IMG/VR virus record: IMGVR_UViG_2565956711_000007
Length of the DNA stretch: 41,286 nt
From: a virus
Taxonomy: Duplodnaviria; Heunggongvirae; Uroviricota; Caudoviricetes
Strand: one strand, 5' to 3'
In this document: in pieces, positions 11,210-39,155 of the stretch
Layout of the letters: every line of letters starts with the position of its first letter
How positions within the stretch are numbered: position 1 is the stretch's first letter
The notes under the pieces: model-generated
What the model saw: only the letters and a program-made list of their open reading frames with translations
Told to the model about the DNA's origin: nothing
Databases searched by the model: none
Position numbers and translations under genes: made by a program

Positions 11210-11593
11210 TTACCTCGCCGTCAGTTGTTTTGATTTCCGGTAGCCTGCCGCGTAAATGGCTACGTTTGGAAGACATACACCAGTTTCTGGTTGCTTATGT
11301 CCAAACTCATTCGCGTACACAATGGCCGCTCGCTCCAGATTGCGTCTGTATTCTTTCTGTTGCCAGATCACGTCCTGTGCCATGAACTTAATTGGCTTAG
11401 CGTCTTCTATGCGCTCAGGCGTTTCGTGAGTACCTTTAGCCTGAATCTGCGCTCTGCTTAGAGTAGGGCGGTGTAATACTTCTGAACTTATTGCTTCTTC
11501 GCGGGCCAGTACGCCGTTAGCTAATGCCTTTGCCTTTAAACGCTCACGACGACGAGAACGTGAATTGCCTTTGAACTGAGTTCTGCGTGTCAT
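11210..11593 (-). CDS. N: Antitermination protein N (P22/phi21-like type)
   Basis: 127 aa; N-terminal arginine-rich motif SRSRRRERLKAKA; AGGAGG 5 nt upstream; preceded by P22-type nutL boxB. Confidence 0.8.
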   Translation of the reverse strand: MTRRTQFKGNSRSRRRERLKAKALANGVLAREEAISSEVLHRPTLSRAQIQAKGTHETPERIEDAKPIKFMAQDVIWQQKEYRRNLERAAIVYANEFGHKQPETGVCLPNVAIYAAGYRKSKQLTAR

Positions 11594-11869: not shown

Positions 11870-11937
11870 CGTAGATTCATATTCGAATCGTTGTATATTC
11901 ACCGCCCTGGTGAGTAATGCGTCCTGCTGATGGCTTA

Positions 11938-12023
11938 AAGATAACTTAGGTTATAGGTGTGGTCAATAACCTAATTTATATTTTATGGTAAATAAGTTAT
12001 AAGTGATGGATAACAAAGGTATT
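11938..12023 (-). promoter_or_regulatory. pL promoter with OL operators
   Basis: Minus strand -35 TTGACC (11961-11966), 17-nt spacer, -10 TATCTT (11938-11943); operator-like ATAAC-N4-GTTAT at 11941-11954, degenerate copies at 11966-11979 and 12010-12023. Confidence 0.55.
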
Positions 12024-12152
12024 TTATTTTTGTAAATGTTGCTGATTGATTGGTGTTTGAGGGCTTGCGTGCGGGGTGAAGGTGTTACCTTTGGCTTGAT
12101 GCTTGTCTATGATGAGGATGGTTGATTGGGTGGTGAACGGCAGGAAAAGAAA

Positions 12153-12178
12153 ACCCGGCGCTGAGGCCGGGTGTTTTT
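12153..12178. terminator. Bidirectional rho-independent terminator ending the cI operon
   Basis: Stem ACCCGGC / GCCGGGT with 6-nt loop, T-runs on both sides; overlaps stop codon of the 98-aa ORF. Confidence 0.7.
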
Positions 12179-12473
12179 AGTCTTTTCTTTTGCTTAGCAT
12201 TTCGTCGATTTCTAAGTCAATACGATATTGATCTATTGCTTTTCTCTCGTTTGGGGTTGGTATTTTATACTGTTCAATTAGATCTGTTGTGTATTTTATT
12301 TCATCTAATGTTATTTTTATATCAGAGAGAATCTCTTTTATATCAATTATATGCTCTTCTTCTTTTGCGCGATTAGAGCTATGTTCAATCATTTGAGATA
12401 GCTTTTTGCTAATGCTTAGCAAAACAAAAAGAATGATGACCAAAACAACAACAAAAACTATCAGAAATTCCAT
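12177..12473 (-). CDS. Hypothetical small membrane protein in the rexAB slot, co-transcribed with cI
   Basis: 98 aa; N-terminal TM helix EFLIVFVVVLVIILFVLLSI then charged helical tail; GGAGGG RBS; 40 nt downstream of cI on same strand; strikingly AT-rich. Confidence 0.7.
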   Translation of the reverse strand: MEFLIVFVVVLVIILFVLLSISKKLSQMIEHSSNRAKEEEHIIDIKEILSDIKITLDEIKYTTDLIEQYKIPTPNERKAIDQYRIDLEIDEMLSKRKD

Positions 12474-12513
12474 TATCCCTCCGCACTTCCGTAAGTCTTC
12501 TTCTGATTATCGG

Positions 12514-13221
12514 TTACCAACTATGAGACGACCAGAATACTCTGCCAATAATCCTTACGGTTTCATGAAATTCATCTCTATCCATTACTTCATCCGGGTA
12601 CTCTTCGCGATTTATTGATCTGATTATCACCGATGTAGGGGTGGCGATTAATGTTTTTACTCGTAACAAATCAGACTGGCAAATAGCGTAGGTTTTACCA
12701 TCTCTGATTGTGGTATCTTGCGTGTTAACACCAACAACATCGCCATCGTGAAGGGTTGGTTCCATGCTTTGCCCTACAACCCTAACTAGCTTGGCTGATC
12801 TTTCAGATACTCCCATCTTTTTCAGATAGTGCTTTCTGAAAACCAAAGAGAACTCCGATGATTCCTCTAGCTCGCAGCTACCGCTTCCAGCTGAAAGCGA
12901 AACGTTAAGAAGAGGCAACGCAACAAACTCGTCATCGTTTCTTTTAATGTCTTCCCATACCACAGCTTTTAAAGATGACTCACGGACATTGGATGGTTCT
13001 TCATGTGCACCATCCCTCATTTCACCAATACCAGAACTAAGCCATTCAGGACGCACTTTTAAAGCATTGGCTAATTCAACCATCTTGCGAGATCCGTTTG
13101 TTTTACCGGACGACATCTTCTGTATGGCTGGCTGAGATATTCCAACCATGTCAGCAAGCTGTGATTGTGATACCCCTGCTGAGCTCATGGCTGCATTTAG
13201 TCTTTCTGCGAATGTTTTCAT
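12514..13221 (-). CDS. cI: CI-type prophage repressor (HTH plus S24 LexA-like autopeptidase domain)
   Basis: 235 aa from ATG 13221 (likely leaderless); HTH QSQLADMVGISQPAIQKM; S24 motif GQSMEPTLHDGDVVGVN; not the lambda cI sequence. Confidence 0.88.
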   Translation of the reverse strand: MKTFAERLNAAMSSAGVSQSQLADMVGISQPAIQKMSSGKTNGSRKMVELANALKVRPEWLSSGIGEMRDGAHEEPSNVRESSLKAVVWEDIKRNDDEFVALPLLNVSLSAGSGSCELEESSEFSLVFRKHYLKKMGVSERSAKLVRVVGQSMEPTLHDGDVVGVNTQDTTIRDGKTYAICQSDLLRVKTLIATPTSVIIRSINREEYPDEVMDRDEFHETVRIIGRVFWSSHSW

Positions 13222-13311
13222 ACCCACAAATCTATAACTACGGTTATCCAAAGTAAAATAACAAAGGTTATTGCTATTTTTTATAACTTGAGTTATCTTT
13301 GGTTATAACTA
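13222..13311. promoter_or_regulatory. OR region: divergent pRM and pR with three operators
   Basis: ATAAC-N4-GTTAT at 13234-13247, 13258-13271, 13283-13296; pR -35 TTGCTA (13271-13276) and -10 TATCTT (13294-13299); pRM -10 TAGATT 7 nt before the cI ATG. Confidence 0.65.
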
Positions 13312-13332: not shown

Positions 13333-13557
13333 ATGAATTTAGTAATTCAACGAGCCTTGAAAATTGTCGGTAGCCAAAAGCGCCTTGCCGACAAGTGTGG
13401 TGTAACGCAGCCAGCAGTACACAAATGGCTGAAAGGCGGGTTGGTCTCTCCAGAGAAAGTTACCGCCATCGTTAACGCCACTGGAGGGCAGATCAAGGCT
13501 TACGAAATTCGCCCCGATTTGCCACACCTGTTTCCAAAACCGAATCAGGCAGCATAA
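13333..13557 (+). CDS. cro: Cro-like repressor (HTH)
   Basis: 74 aa from ATG 13333 with GAGG 8 nt upstream; divergent from cI across the operators. Confidence 0.75.
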   Translation: MNLVIQRALKIVGSQKRLADKCGVTQPAVHKWLKGGLVSPEKVTAIVNATGGQIKAYEIRPDLPHLFPKPNQAA

Positions 13558-13695: not shown

Positions 13696-13992
13696 ATGAC
13701 ACAAGCAAGTTACAGCAAGCCAACACAGCGAGAAATTGATCGCGCTGAAACTGATTTACTCATCAACCTGTCAACGCTTACCCAGCGCGGTCTGGCAAAG
13801 ATGATTGGCTGTCATGAATCGAAGATAAGCAGAACGGACTGGAGATTTATTGCTTCGGTCTTGTGTGCTTTCGGAATGGCATCAGACATCAGTCCGATTA
13901 GCAGGGCTTTTAAGTATGCGCTTGATGAAATCACAAAGAAAAAATCCCCGGCCGCCACCGAGGATTTTAAGCAAATTGATATGCAATTCTGA
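13696..13992 (+). CDS. cII: CII-like transcriptional activator
   Basis: 98 aa; C-terminus KKKSPAATEDFKQIDMQF resembles recalled lambda CII end KKRPAATERSEQIQMEF; HTH in middle. Confidence 0.8.
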   Translation: MTQASYSKPTQREIDRAETDLLINLSTLTQRGLAKMIGCHESKISRTDWRFIASVLCAFGMASDISPISRAFKYALDEITKKKSPAATEDFKQIDMQF

Positions 13993-18499: not shown

Positions 18500-19119
18500 G
18501 ACTCGAAAGCGTAGCTAAATTTCATTCGCCAAAAAGCCCGATGATGAGCGACTCACCACGGGCCACGGCTTCTGACTCTCTTTCCGGTACTGATGTGATG
18601 GCTGCTATGGGGATGGCGCAATCACAAGCCGGATTCGGAATGGCTGCATTCTGCGGTAAGCATGAACTCAGCCAGAACGACAAACAAAAGGCTATCAACT
18701 ATCTGATGCAATATGCACACAAGGTATCGGGGAAATACCGTGGTGTGGCAAAGCTCGAAGGAAATACTAAGGCAAAGGTACTGCAAGTGCTCGCAACATT
18801 CGCTTATGCGGATTATTGCCGTAGTGCCGCGACGCCGGGTGCAAGATGCAGAGATTGCCACGGTACAGGTCGTGCGGTTGATATAGCAAAAACAGAGCAG
18901 TGGGGGAGAGTTGTTGAGAAAGAGTGCGGAAGATGCAAAGGAGTCGGCTATTCAAGAATGCCAGCAAGCGCTGCATATCGCGCTGTAACGATGCTAATCC
19001 CAAACCTTACTCAACCCACCTGGTCACGCACTGTTAAGCCGCTGTATGACGCTCTGGTGGTGCAATGCCACAAGGAAGAGTCAATCGCAGACAACATTTT
19101 GAATGCGGTCACACGTTAG
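18496..19119 (+). CDS. Q: Late antiterminator Q (lambda type)
   Basis: 207 aa; essentially the lambda Q sequence as recalled (MRLESVAKFHSPKSPMMSDSPRATASDS...). Confidence 0.95.
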   Translation: MRLESVAKFHSPKSPMMSDSPRATASDSLSGTDVMAAMGMAQSQAGFGMAAFCGKHELSQNDKQKAINYLMQYAHKVSGKYRGVAKLEGNTKAKVLQVLATFAYADYCRSAATPGARCRDCHGTGRAVDIAKTEQWGRVVEKECGRCKGVGYSRMPASAAYRAVTMLIPNLTQPTWSRTVKPLYDALVVQCHKEESIADNILNAVTR

Positions 19120-37355: not shown

Positions 37356-37673
37356 CTATTTTTTCTCAGAGCTCATATTGTAATAGGTGGTATAAATAGA
37401 GATTGATTTCTGACATGCTTCAAGAAATTGCTGCGGAGTCATCCCAAGCCTTGCTTGCTCTGTAGTAAGGAATCTCTGTAAGAATTCATTCCCACCCGGC
37501 ATGTTTGTAGATTCTTGGAATATTGCCATTTGTTTGATTGCACCACACATACCAGCCATTTTCGAAGCTATCATGAGGCCTTGTATTTCATCAAAACTGC
37601 TATCGTCTGATTTTGTTTCTGCGTTAGCTATGCTCGAGAGACACAGGAGCAATAGGATAGCGATACGTTTCAT
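37356..37673 (-). CDS. Secreted small protein (signal peptide, two Cys), co-transcribed with mnt
   Basis: MKRIAILLLLCLSSIANA signal; ATG overlaps mnt stop (ATGA); AT-rich. Confidence 0.6.
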   Translation of the reverse strand: MKRIAILLLLCLSSIANAETKSDDSSFDEIQGLMIASKMAGMCGAIKQMAIFQESTNMPGGNEFLQRFLTTEQARLGMTPQQFLEACQKSISIYTTYYNMSSEKK

Positions 37674-37921
37674 TTTTCACCATTGCCATGCATACATTTT
37701 AACTTCTCAACATCATGCTCAAGCTCTATCAGTCGCGATGCTATAGTTGCAAGATCTAGTGCTTGAATGTGTTTGTTTTTTTCGGTCCATGCTTCAAGTG
37801 CTGCGACCATCTCAGCATTTAATGAACGAGAATTAGCCTCAGCCAGTTCAATAAGACGTTCCTTTATCTCTACAGGAAGCCTCAGATTCACTTGAGGGTT
37901 TTTGTACTTACGATCAGACAT
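37670..37921 (-). CDS. mnt: Mnt-like ribbon-helix-helix repressor
   Basis: 83 aa (same as P22 Mnt); RHH N-terminus QVNLRLPVEIKERLIELAEANSRSLNAEMVAAL. Confidence 0.75.
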   Translation of the reverse strand: MSDRKYKNPQVNLRLPVEIKERLIELAEANSRSLNAEMVAALEAWTEKNKHIQALDLATIASRLIELEHDVEKLKCMHGNGEK

Positions 37922-38026
37922 CGGCGCATCCTGAATAATTTTTTACCACAGGATATGTAGGTATCTATTGACTATCAATGCGTACCTAAATACTATGTAT
38001 GCGTACCACATACAACGGAGGATGCA
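37922..38026. promoter_or_regulatory. Divergent Pant / Pmnt promoter and operator region
   Basis: Pant -35 TTGACT (37968-37973), 17-nt spacer, -10 TACTAT (37991-37996); palindrome ATTGA-CTA-TCAAT (37967-37979); direct repeats TGCGTACC at 37979-37986 and 38000-38007. Confidence 0.6.
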
Positions 38027-38167
38027 ATGAAGGTAAAAACACTGCGTATGCCAGAGAAGCTAGAAAAAATTCTTGAAGAAAAAGCAAAGGAAGAGTGTCG
38101 CTCATTCAGCGCAGAAGTAATTAAACGGGTGCTGGACAGCCTGAGGAGAGAGGGGATAACGGTGTGA
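38027..38167 (+). CDS. arc: Arc-like ribbon-helix-helix repressor
   Basis: 46 aa [46 protein letters not shown]; GGAGG 5 nt upstream; too short for ORF track. Confidence 0.7.
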
Positions 38168-38191
38168 TTCGCTTGGATGCGGCAAAGAAAT

Positions 38192-38292
38192 CAAAACAGT
38201 GAAGCCCCAACTGCTGGAACAGTCAGGGCTTCGGTATCAACAAAACTTACGAGGTATTATTGATATGTCAAGCTTAGCAAAGTCAACTGTAA
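38192..38292 (-). ncRNA. Predicted sar-like antisense RNA covering the ant ribosome-binding site
   Basis: Minus-strand -35 TTGACG (38321-38326), 16-nt spacer, extended -10 TGcTATTAG (38299-38307); hairpin 38201-38232 then U-rich tract. Confidence 0.35.
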
Positions 38293-39155
38293 ATTGCACT
38301 AATAGCATCATCATTTCTGACGTCAAGATTCATATGGATTCAGAGGGTCGTTACTCGCTTAATGACCTTCATGTAGCATCTGGAAAGGAGGAAAAACATC
38401 AGCCAGCTTTCTTCATGCGTAGAAATGAAACTATTGAATTGATTAATGAAATTTTTAATTCTGCGGATATGCAGAATAAGAATCCCGTCCTTTCTAAGAA
38501 AGGTAGATATGGTGGAACCTACGTTTGCAAGGAGCTTGTTTACTCCTACGCCATGTGGATTAGCGCAGCCTTTGCGCTGAAGGTTATCCGTGCATATGAC
38601 GCAATGGTTACTACCACACAAGAGAGGAAGGCTATTGGCGGTAAAACTTCAGTAGCTGAACGCACACCGCTACGCGATGCAGTAAACATGCTGGTAGGAA
38701 AGAAAGGACTTCGCTATGACGATGCATACAATATGGTTCATCAGCGTTTTGGTATTGACAGCATTGATGAACTTTCAATTGAACAAATCCCGCTGGCCGT
38801 AGAGTACATCCACAGGGTAGTGCTTGAAGGCGAGTTTATCGGCAAACAAGAGAAGAAAGCAAACGAGCTTTCTGCAAAAGAAGCAAACAGCCTTGTATGG
38901 CTATGGGATTATGCTAACCGTTCACAGGCATTATTCCGCGAACTGTATCCGGCATTAAAACAAATTCAATCGAACTATTCCGGCAGATGCTACGACTACG
39001 GTCATGAATTCTCGTATGTTATCGGAATGGCGAGAGACGTTTTAATAAACCACACACGAGATGTTGATATTAATGAACCAGACGGACCAACGAATCTTTC
39101 CGCATGGATGAGACTTAAGAATAAAGAATTACCTCCTTCAGTACATAACTACTGA
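38265..39155 (+). CDS. ant: Antirepressor Ant-like protein with KilA-N-type N-terminal domain
   Basis: 296 aa from ATG 38265; follows arc as in P22 immI; N-terminal [10 protein letters not shown] motif. Confidence 0.7.

Follow-up and report, generated by a model that had tools for sequence, protein, structure and literature searches.

A predicted lambda-style switch with 434-like ATAAC-N4-GTTAT operators in the immC region of a P22-like prophage

In phage lambda, the divergent cI and cro genes surround a three-site OR and OL lies upstream of N, as in the locus described here. The lambda operators are 17 bp long (TATCACCGC...), however, and those of OR are spaced by 23 and 24 bp, versus 14-bp operators spaced by 24 and 25 bp here. 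In phage 434 (structures 2or1, 1per, 1rpe), OR and OL each comprise three symmetric operators of 14 bp, and repressor and Cro have a recognition-helix motif in common, all features found again in the present locus. In contrast, its operators read ACAA-N6-TTGT (half-site ACAA(G/T), versus ATAAC here) and its OR spacing is 23/22 bp. The P22 c2 operators are of the ATTTAAG...CTTAAAT type, unlike ATAAC-N4-GTTAT, the annotated oR1-3 operators of 933W are CGTACTGAAAGTACG-like, and OR of H-19B harbors GATAAAT-type repeats next to a cI with an unrelated N-terminus. The early-region layout of 933W and H-19B (Shi and Friedman 2001) is similar to that of our locus. Phage HK639 (GenBank HM208537) has a record without annotated operators. 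No description of the ATAAC-N4-GTTAT motif was found in the literature on Stx1/cI operators, VT1-Sakai, immunity groups and HK639, in which King et al. 2011 may mention operators, and a full-text search for the operator strings and ATAACNNNNGTTAT returned only an unrelated S. aureus paper.

The window, i.e., the whole stretch of 41,286 nucleotides that was analysed, carries N, OL, cI, OR, cro, cII, O, and a DnaC-like gene in the lambdoid order. With good confidence, this is the immC control region of a prophage that is P22-like/lambdoid, and it is organised in the manner of the lambda switch. The N antiterminator gene, first of the pL operon (11210-11593, minus strand; Pfam N_peptide, 2.1e-15), encodes a protein identical across all 127 residues to N of phage 933W. 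Directly downstream of cI, at the position of rex in lambda, lies a 98-residue ORF with an N-terminal membrane helix (12177-12473, minus strand). It belongs to phrog_18389 (unknown function; 6e-62), possesses a GGAGGG before its ATG, and gave no match in a Pfam search. An intrinsic terminator identified by a terminator scan (12153-12172, minus strand; a 7-bp stem with 6 GC pairs, then a T run) is predicted to end the cI-orf98 (pRM) transcript ahead of OL; lambda also carries an extra gene and a terminator downstream of cI. The cII activator gene (13696-13992, plus strand; Pfam Phage_CII, 4e-33) harbors within its 5' end a pRE-like TTGC-N6-TTGC cII box directed toward cI (13705-13718, minus strand). 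This placement is that of the annotated boxes of 434 and P22, and the lambda box is likewise located within cII. No stx gene was noticed in the window.

Four perfect ATAAC-N4-GTTAT sites, 14-bp palindromes of two-fold symmetry that we predict to be operators, are present in the window versus 0.07 expected, and none of 100 shuffles contained four or more. One is upstream of N (OL1, ATAACTTAGGTTAT, 11941-11954) and three are between the divergent cI and cro genes (OR3, ATAACTACGGTTAT, 13234-13247; OR2, ATAACAAAGGTTAT, 13258-13271; OR1, ATAACTTGAGTTAT, 13283-13296). Allowing one mismatch adds a single site, ATAACCTAATTTAT (OL2, 11966-11979), beside the perfect OL site, and all five sites with at most one mismatch in 41 kb thus fall within OL or OR. 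Sites with two mismatches elsewhere in the window are near chance (23 found versus 14 expected), and the case for the weaker OL sites is therefore one of conservation in relatives, not of statistics. These counts bear on an alternative in which the palindromes are repeats that reflect chance or the composition of AT-rich intergenic DNA, or else serve a DNA-binding protein of the host. The AT-richness of the intergenic regions and the near-chance number of two-mismatch sites fit such an origin, whereas the excess of perfect sites, with none outside OL and OR, does not. The Fur box and other host-factor consensus sites are not known to fit the half-site spacing.

Conservation weighs further against that alternative. 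Most IMG/VR loci were fetched with a pattern needing two perfect sites, so that their conservation is partly by construction, and the unbiased loci are the Cro-retrieved and BLAST-retrieved ones only. Searching genome contigs with Cro yielded four loci, in prophages of Enterobacter, Serratia, Xenorhabdus, and Symbiopectobacterium (Cro 74-84% identical), all with matching operators; as the search gave just these four, the host range stated here is a minimum. In these loci, picked by protein only, the half-site bases are kept at 118 of 120 positions (98%), versus 67 of 132 (51%) for the other positions of the same 63 bp. The OR spacers are exactly 10 and 11 bp in all 47 distinct OR sequences, and almost all strong sites of the group have T2 and C5 in the half-site, the known exceptions being OR2 of PA28 (ACAAC) and OR2 of the Xenorhabdus locus (AGAAC). 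With the constant spacing, and with changes of the recognition helix being tracked by half-site changes in neighbouring phage groups (see below), an origin by chance or as host-protein sites is highly improbable. Of 5426 complete E. coli genomes, 187 (~3%) carry operators of this type.

OR occupies the 111-bp gap between cI (minus strand) and cro (plus strand). The sequence-only reading had placed three 14-bp sites at 13234, 13258, and 13283, and these positions were confirmed, with centre-to-centre spacings of 24 and 25 bp. OR3 is located within the proposed pRM, the centre of OR2 is ~43 bp upstream of the cI ATG, and OR1 sits between the -35 and -10 of pR. The central four base pairs contain, on average across relatives, 2.55 G/C of 4 in OR3, 1.30 in OR1, and 0.98 in OR2. 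The pR -35 hexamer TTGCTA (13271-13276, plus strand) has 1 bp in common with OR2, and HK639-type relatives display TGGACA at this position. The first three bases of the pR -10 hexamer TATCTT (13294-13299, plus strand) are the last three of OR1. The pR hexamers score 8/12 in a consensus scan, under the threshold of 9; in the 47 distinct ORs, the -10 reads TATCTT, TATGAT, TATATT, TATTAT, or TATTTT, always TATnnT. The HK639 record places a "putative pR" (TTGGGT-N17-AGTAAT) farther downstream than this conserved, operator-overlapping predicted promoter. Its position is not kept in our window or in several subgroups, and it was rejected as pR here. A candidate fourth OR site was also discarded: GTTATAAC at 13302-13309 and a two-mismatch site at 13293-13306 overlap OR1 and do not occur in HK639-type or other relatives.

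The proposed pRM hexamers were read by eye. The -35, TTTACT (13252-13257, minus strand), directly adjoins OR2, as the pRM -35 of lambda adjoins an OR2-like site, and GTAAAATAAC is kept there in most relatives. The -10, TAGATT (13229-13234, minus strand), ends 7 nt before the cI ATG, and its equivalent in HK639-type ORs, TATATT, is 6 nt from the ATG. The cI mRNA would thus be leaderless or nearly so, with transcription apparently starting at the cI AUG or 1 nt ahead of it, whereas 434 cI is annotated with a leader and a ribosome-binding site.

At OL, one perfect and two degenerate sites had been proposed; the perfect site and the one-mismatch site stand, and beyond those lie two weaker elements. 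OL1 is likewise perfect in relatives, the motif itself having been the basis for their selection. The last three bases of OL1 are the first three of the pL -10 hexamer TATCTT (11938-11943, minus strand), and AAAGATAAC is kept at this place in OL of relatives. The pL -35 hexamer TTGACC (11961-11966, minus strand) overlaps OL2 by 1 bp, relatives carrying TTGCCA or TTGACC at this position, and TTGACC-N17-TATCTT passes the consensus promoter scan (9/12, threshold 9). GTTATCTTT occurs at 13292-13300 (plus strand) and at 11937-11945 (minus strand), in agreement with the earlier view that operators lie over the -10 regions of both pR and pL, where they overlap conserved promoter-like hexamers. OL2, its centre 25 bp from that of OL1, has an imperfect right half in all relatives (TTTAT, ATTAT, or CTTAT), so that it is kept as a weaker site. 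The OL3 candidate GGTAAATAAGTTAT (11987-12000, centre 21 bp from OL2) retains the right half GTTAT alone. This GTTAT is present in every listed relative, HK639-type phages having ATCACATAAGTTAT, with one mismatch. The OL4 candidate ATAACAAAGGTATT (12010-12023, two mismatches, centre 23 bp from OL3) is weakly indicated, its ATAAC half being retained in most, not all, relatives. Both OL3 and OL4 are weak as sites in this window.

The cI repressor (235 residues; 12514-13221, minus strand) is composed of an HTH_3 domain and a Peptidase_S24 domain (Pfam, 1.4e-17 for the latter). The C-terminal domain is of the LexA-like, self-cleaving type, with the Ala111-Gly112, Gly-Gln-Ser152-Met, and Lys189 motifs, and the S24 cleavage site at Ala111-Gly112 is as in lambda. 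The S24 assignment made earlier is therefore correct, but calling this cI unrelated to lambda cI was an overstatement: BLASTP aligns the two at 23% identity over 227 residues (E 3e-4), with HTH and S24 in both. The N-terminal HTH domain is 434-like, with the 434 repressor as its closest match (E 8e-8 to 7e-7 with 434 repressor DNA-binding domains in phmmer searches of PDB sequences), and that of P22 c2 matches only at E 0.0098. Its recognition helix is S29-Q-P-A-I-Q-K35. Among 48 distinct cI proteins, whose N-terminal domains range from 54 to 100% identity, [ST]QPA[IV]QK is found in 47, the remaining one having A for Q. Cro (74 residues; 13333-13557, plus strand; Pfam YdaS_toxin, 1.1e-17, and HTH_3) displays the helix T-Q-P-A-V-H-K, and [ST]QPAVHK is found in 28 of 29 distinct Cro proteins. 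The HTH domains of cI and Cro align (E 5e-8) and have the motif [ST]QPA[IV].K in common. Binding of the operator sites by cI is predicted.

The likeness to 434 raises the question of whether the specificity is distinct at all. The repressor might cross-react with a 434-like set of operators (ACAA-N6-TTGT or ACAAC-N4-GTTGT), making this prophage homoimmune with a known group. The homologous N-terminal domain, the 14-bp operators with A at positions 1, 3, and 4, the ACAAC left half in OR2 of PA28, and the helix core of phage PhiR26_1, which differs solely by Pro to Ala, all speak for cross-reaction. At the level of contacts, Gln30 and Arg45 of cI align with 434 Gln28, at helix position 1, and Arg43, whereas Pro31 and Lys35 replace the 434 contact residues Gln29 and Gln33 (SQPAIQK versus TQQSIEQ over the aligned residues). 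The 434 immunity region, from which six annotated operators were extracted, contains no ATAAC-N4-GTTAT at up to two mismatches, and the near-invariance of T2 and C5 in strong sites also sets the group apart. Cross-reaction is therefore judged unlikely. The comparison with other known lambdoid operators gave the same outcome: none of the annotated lambda operators resembles the motif, no site at up to two mismatches is present in the extracted OR and OL of P22, and no ATAAC-N4-GTTAT site is present in the 933W operators or in the operator region of the H-19B immunity region.

Neighbouring phage groups display other pairs of helix and operator. PhiR26_1 has the helix SQAAIQK and operators ACAAC-N4-GTTKT, and in Lambda_4C10 and BTP1 the helix is AQPTIWR, with operators of which ATACGCTTGCGTAT is an example. 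Three sites 23-25 bp apart are present in both PhiR26_1 and Lambda_4C10, the matches in BTP1 being weak, with 2-3 mismatches, and differently spaced. Across these groups, half-site changes in the predicted operators track recognition-helix changes. A broader reading, "imm639", is offered tentatively, at somewhat less than even chances. It would be a widespread, biochemically uncharacterised group in which a module for DNA binding, made up of the operators, the N-terminal domain of cI, and Cro, is combined with at least three S24 C-terminal lineages, and which belongs to a helix/operator series (SQAAIQK/ACAAC; SQPAIQK/ATAAC; TQQSIEQ/ACAA) where one to two helix changes would accompany single base changes. 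If true, it would provide a usable system for studying the origin of new immunity specificities.

These operators may not be the whole of immunity. The window also carries an immI region (mnt/arc/ant), placed as in P22, with the head genes on one side and the tailspike on the other. It encodes two ribbon-helix-helix proteins, one Mnt-like (37670-37921) and one Arc-like (38027-38167), together with an Ant (38199-39155) that has KilA-N and P22_AR_C domains. The immunity phenotype would then not depend on the immC operators alone. We give even chances to a bipartite system of the P22 kind, in which the operators are real and Ant, under Mnt/Arc control, can override cI. Such a system adds to the operator reading without contradicting it, the effect of Ant on cI being putative.

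The operator reading predicts the following lambda-style switch. The cI and Cro proteins would act as dimers on the 14-bp ATAAC-N4-GTTAT operators. In the lysogen, cI at OR1/OR2 and OL1/OL2 would block pR and pL, as judged from position: OR2 and OL2 each share 1 bp with a -35, and OR1 and OL1 provide the TAT of a -10. By analogy with lambda, cI at OR2, adjoining the proposed pRM -35, probably stimulates pRM, and occupancy of OR3, inside pRM, would turn it off. RecA-stimulated cleavage of cI at Ala111-Gly112 would lead to prophage induction. Cro, with the shared helix motif on identical sites, would switch pRM off, and pR and pL at a later stage, and cII at its TTGC-N6-TTGC box would drive establishment transcription.

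The locus extends the catalogue of lambdoid immunity groups by one well-defined specificity, and the workings of such switches are viewed as before. Knowledge of the operators may allow prediction of homoimmune prophages, hence of mutual exclusion or co-repression, and the design of reporters for Stx1 prophage induction. It would also improve the annotation of genes now labelled just "XRE family transcriptional regulator".

The operators, their spacing, and the recognition helices are also found in HK639 and in the Stx1 phages Stx1a_10051, SH2026Stx1, and PA28. The immunity-region DNA of the latter three is 99.5%, 94.5%, and 78.5% identical to that of the window, with matching half-sites and positions, although OR2 of PA28 is a hybrid site, ACAACAATTGTTAT. 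They differ in the genes between cI and OL, and the window belongs to a P22-like prophage. In HK639, the half-sites, the 10/11-bp spacers, and GTTATCTTT at OR1 and OL1 are all as here; its OR reads ATAACCGAGGTTAT / ATAACAAAGGTTAT / ATAACTTGGGTTAT, then CTTT, and OL1, OL2, and OL3 have the same layout. The HK639 cI N-terminal domain is 85% identical to ours, with an identical SQPAIQK core, and its Cro is 84% identical, with the [ST]QPAVHK helix in both phages. In contrast, the cI C-terminal domain (VSAGPG...GDSMCP type) shares only ~25% identity, and cooperativity and mixed oligomers may differ between the two repressors. HK639 also uses put-like antiterminator RNAs, not N, and has other neighbouring genes. 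As HK639 and the Stx1 phages combine the same immC with other virion modules, immC behaves as an independent module. The group separate from lambda, 434, and P22 that had been proposed is supported by the absence of the motif from their operators, but it is not new, being shared with these phages. Judged by operators and helices, the predicted specificity differs from those of lambda, 434, P22, 933W, and H-19B, and is that of HK639 and of widespread Enterobacterales prophages, in what appears to be a switch of the lambda kind whose 14-bp operators are 434-like yet differ in specificity.

Genes in the 11.2-15.7 kb segment are ordered as in a lambdoid early region: N (11210-11593, minus strand, Pfam N_peptide), an intergenic control region, a 98-aa membrane ORF (12177-12473, minus strand), cI (12514-13221, minus strand; 235 aa, HTH_3 and Peptidase_S24 domains), a 111-bp cI-cro gap, cro (13333-13557, plus strand, YdaS/Cro-like HTH), cII (13696-13992) and, last, an O-like replication gene with a DnaC-like loader. 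The region is a standard lambdoid cI/cro immunity (immC) switch, whose operators resemble those of 434 in geometry but use a half-site of their own. From sequence, the specificity appears to be that of coliphage HK639 and of a family of Enterobacterales prophages that includes Stx1 phages.

The operators follow the palindrome ATAAC-N4-GTTAT. Perfect copies start at 11941, 13234, 13258 and 13283, four against 0.07 expected, a number reached in none of the shuffled sequences. Allowing one mismatch adds only 11966-11979, which places the full set of five within the two control regions and none elsewhere in the 41 kb. At two mismatches the count is near chance level (23 vs 14); one of these sites, 12010-12023, is located in OL. 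The three 14-bp palindromes claimed for OR by the sequence-only reading are confirmed (OR3 13234-13247, OR2 13258-13271, OR1 13283-13296), with centre-to-centre distances of 24 and 25 bp. Its wording for OL, one perfect plus two degenerate sites, is fair; OL1 lies at 11941-11954, OL2 at 11966-11979 and a candidate OL3 at 11987-12000. Besides these, TTATCTTTGGTTATAAC at 13293-13309 combines a two-mismatch site overlapping OR1 with an everted GTTATAAC, just where pR transcription is expected to begin. Only the subtype of the window and phage SH2026Stx1 has this element; relatives of the HK639 type and others lack it, and a fourth OR operator is improbable.

Both early promoters are interlocked with these sites. 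A consensus scan detects pL on the minus strand (-35 TTGACC 11966-11961, N17, -10 TATCTT 11943-11938); pR, on the plus strand (-35 TTGCTA 13271-13276, N17, -10 TATCTT 13294-13299), matches 8/12 positions, under the scan threshold. The -10 element said to be shared by the two, GTTATCTTT, is indeed present at 13292-13300 (+) and 11937-11945 (-). In each case TAT, the first half of the -10 hexamer, belongs to the operator, and the next operator overlaps the -35 hexamer by 1 bp. A putative pRM, placed by eye on the minus strand (-35 TTTACT 13257-13252, N17, -10 TAGATT 13234-13229), would end its -10 only 7 nt from the cI ATG, which no usable Shine-Dalgarno precedes; cI mRNA from this promoter would thus have no leader, or almost none. 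The pRM mRNA of lambda is likewise leaderless or nearly so, and the P22 record, with an RM 5' end 4 nt from c2, resembles this prediction. A pRE-like TTGC-N6-TTGC box lies on the minus strand at 13705-13718, within the start of cII, where the 434 and P22 records annotate cII/C1 boxes. Two further minus-strand boxes, upstream of int (2698-2711, pI-like) and inside a 207-aa gene 23/Q-like ORF (18783-18796, paQ/a23-like), complete the three canonical cII-dependent promoter places. The window total of six such boxes is not above chance, and their placement is the notable feature.

Comparison with relatives supports a function for the sites. Of 5426 complete E. coli genomes, 187 carry the immunity region, which is 99.5% identical in the Stx1a-converting phage Stx1a_10051, 94.5% in SH2026Stx1 and 78.5% in PA28, whose operators (cI 85% identical) keep the half-sites with the central 4 bp altered. 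In HK639 the cI N-terminal domain and Cro are 85% and 84% identical to those of the window, OR reads ATAACCGAGGTTAT / ATAACAAAGGTTAT / ATAACTTGGGTTAT followed by CTTT, and the OL layout is the same. The "putative pR" of its record (TTGGGT-N17-AGTAAT; L124, the HK639 locus, 2907-2935) may be a misplaced annotation: TGGACA-N17-TATCTT, the promoter that overlaps the operators and is kept in each of the 47 OR variants, lies upstream of it. A pattern scan of IMG/VR returned more than 80 loci, with a bias towards perfect sites. Searching species-representative genomes with Cro alone, a retrieval unbiased as to operator sites, yielded prophages of Enterobacter bugandensis, Serratia marcescens, Xenorhabdus hominickii and a Symbiopectobacterium. 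All four carry the three OR sites at identical offsets, and within the same 63 bp 118/120 half-site bases match the window against 67/132 other bases. The 47 distinct OR sequences compared invariably have spacers of 10 and 11 bp and a TATnnT hexamer after OR1. The central 4 bp of these contain on average 2.55 G/C in OR3, 1.30 in OR1 and 0.98 in OR2. By analogy with 434, whose operator affinity is tuned by central base composition, OR3 is predicted to be the weak site. In OL, OL1 is perfect in all relatives, but these were chosen by a pattern requiring it. The right half of OL2 is always imperfect (TTTAT, ATTAT or CTTAT). Relatives always retain a GTTAT half-site 21 bp beyond OL2 (OL3, a one-mismatch site in the HK639 type but just a half-site in the window), and usually an ATAAC half after it (OL4).

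The N-terminal domain of cI aligns with the DNA-binding domain of 434 repressor (E 8e-8 to 7e-7). 434 Gln17, Gln28 and Arg43 are conserved there as Gln19, Gln30 and Arg45, and Pro31 and Lys35 stand in place of 434 Gln29 and Gln33. In published 434 complexes, Gln28 reads A1, Gln29 position 2, and Gln33 positions 4 and 5. This pattern would fit an operator keeping A1, A3 and A4 but having T2 and C5. The recognition helix [ST]QPA[IV]QK occurs in all 48 distinct operator-linked cI proteins, bar one with A for Q, at N-terminal domain identities of 54 to 100%; 28 of 29 distinct Cro proteins have [ST]QPAVHK, and the cI and Cro HTHs align with each other (E 5e-8). Among solved structures, the closest to this Cro are Xfaso1 Cro (3bd1, E 5e-5) and further proteins of the Cro family known for fold switching between all-alpha and alpha+beta. 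The assignment of cI to the S24 type stands; the view that it is unrelated to lambda cI does not, the two being distant homologues (23% identity, E 3e-4). With Ala111-Gly112, Ser152 in GQSM and Lys189, cI is expected to undergo RecA-dependent self-cleavage. The most interesting side result is that cI is mosaic by domain, a single DNA-binding module (recognition helix and operator type) being combined with S24 C-terminal domains of at least three lineages, as seen by comparing loci L007, L010, L123, L005 and L126-L128 with the window: Ala-Gly/GQSMEP (the window cI), Cys-Gly/G[DN]SMEP (about 45% identity to the former) and the HK639 type, VSAGPG/GDSMCP (about 25%).

The 98-aa ORF, directly 3' of cI, occupies the position of lambda rexAB. 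It has an N-terminal transmembrane helix, its own GGAGGG ribosome-binding site and a 3' intrinsic terminator (12153-12473 covers both), is a member of phrog_18389 (unknown function) and lacks a Pfam match. Relatives carry other genes at this place; the ORF may serve in exclusion or lysogenic conversion. On the other side of OL, N matches its Stx2 phage 933W counterpart at 100% identity and adjoins an HK639-type immunity region, which implies a recombination junction somewhere between N and OL. The remainder of the window is P22-like, with a P22 portal and tailspike head-binding domain and, between head/ejection genes and tailspike, a P22-type immI region (37670-39155) encoding Mnt-like (37670-37921, minus strand) and Arc-like (38027-38167) proteins and the antirepressor Ant (38199-39155, KilA-N and P22_AR_C domains). 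Immunity is thus probably bipartite, as in P22.

The searchable literature, which did not extend to the HK639 paper, yielded no description of the motif, and the HK639 GenBank record annotates promoters, not operators. A specificity unlike those of lambda, 434 and P22, as first proposed, is borne out by comparison with the annotated 434, lambda and 933W operators, the annotated P22 operator regions and H-19B OR, none of which contains the motif even at two mismatches. The 434 operators are ACAA-N6-TTGT, those of lambda 17 bp long and those of 933W CGTACTGAAAGTACG-like. E. coli strain H19 (NZ_AP027165.1 3180278-3181919) carries the immunity region at 99.5% identity; Stx1 phage H-19B came from an E. 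coli strain of that name, and if the strains are one and the same, heteroimmunity between the two prophages is expected, H-19B having different operators. In neighbouring groups, helix and half-site covary: PhiR26_1 pairs SQAAIQK with ACAAC-N4-GTTKT, and Lambda_4C10 and BTP1 pair AQPTIWR with ATACG-type sites. The layout of three 14-bp sites at 23-25 bp intervals is retained in PhiR26_1 and Lambda_4C10; BTP1 gives weak matches at other spacings. Arranged around the 434 type, these neighbouring groups make up a natural series of specificities.
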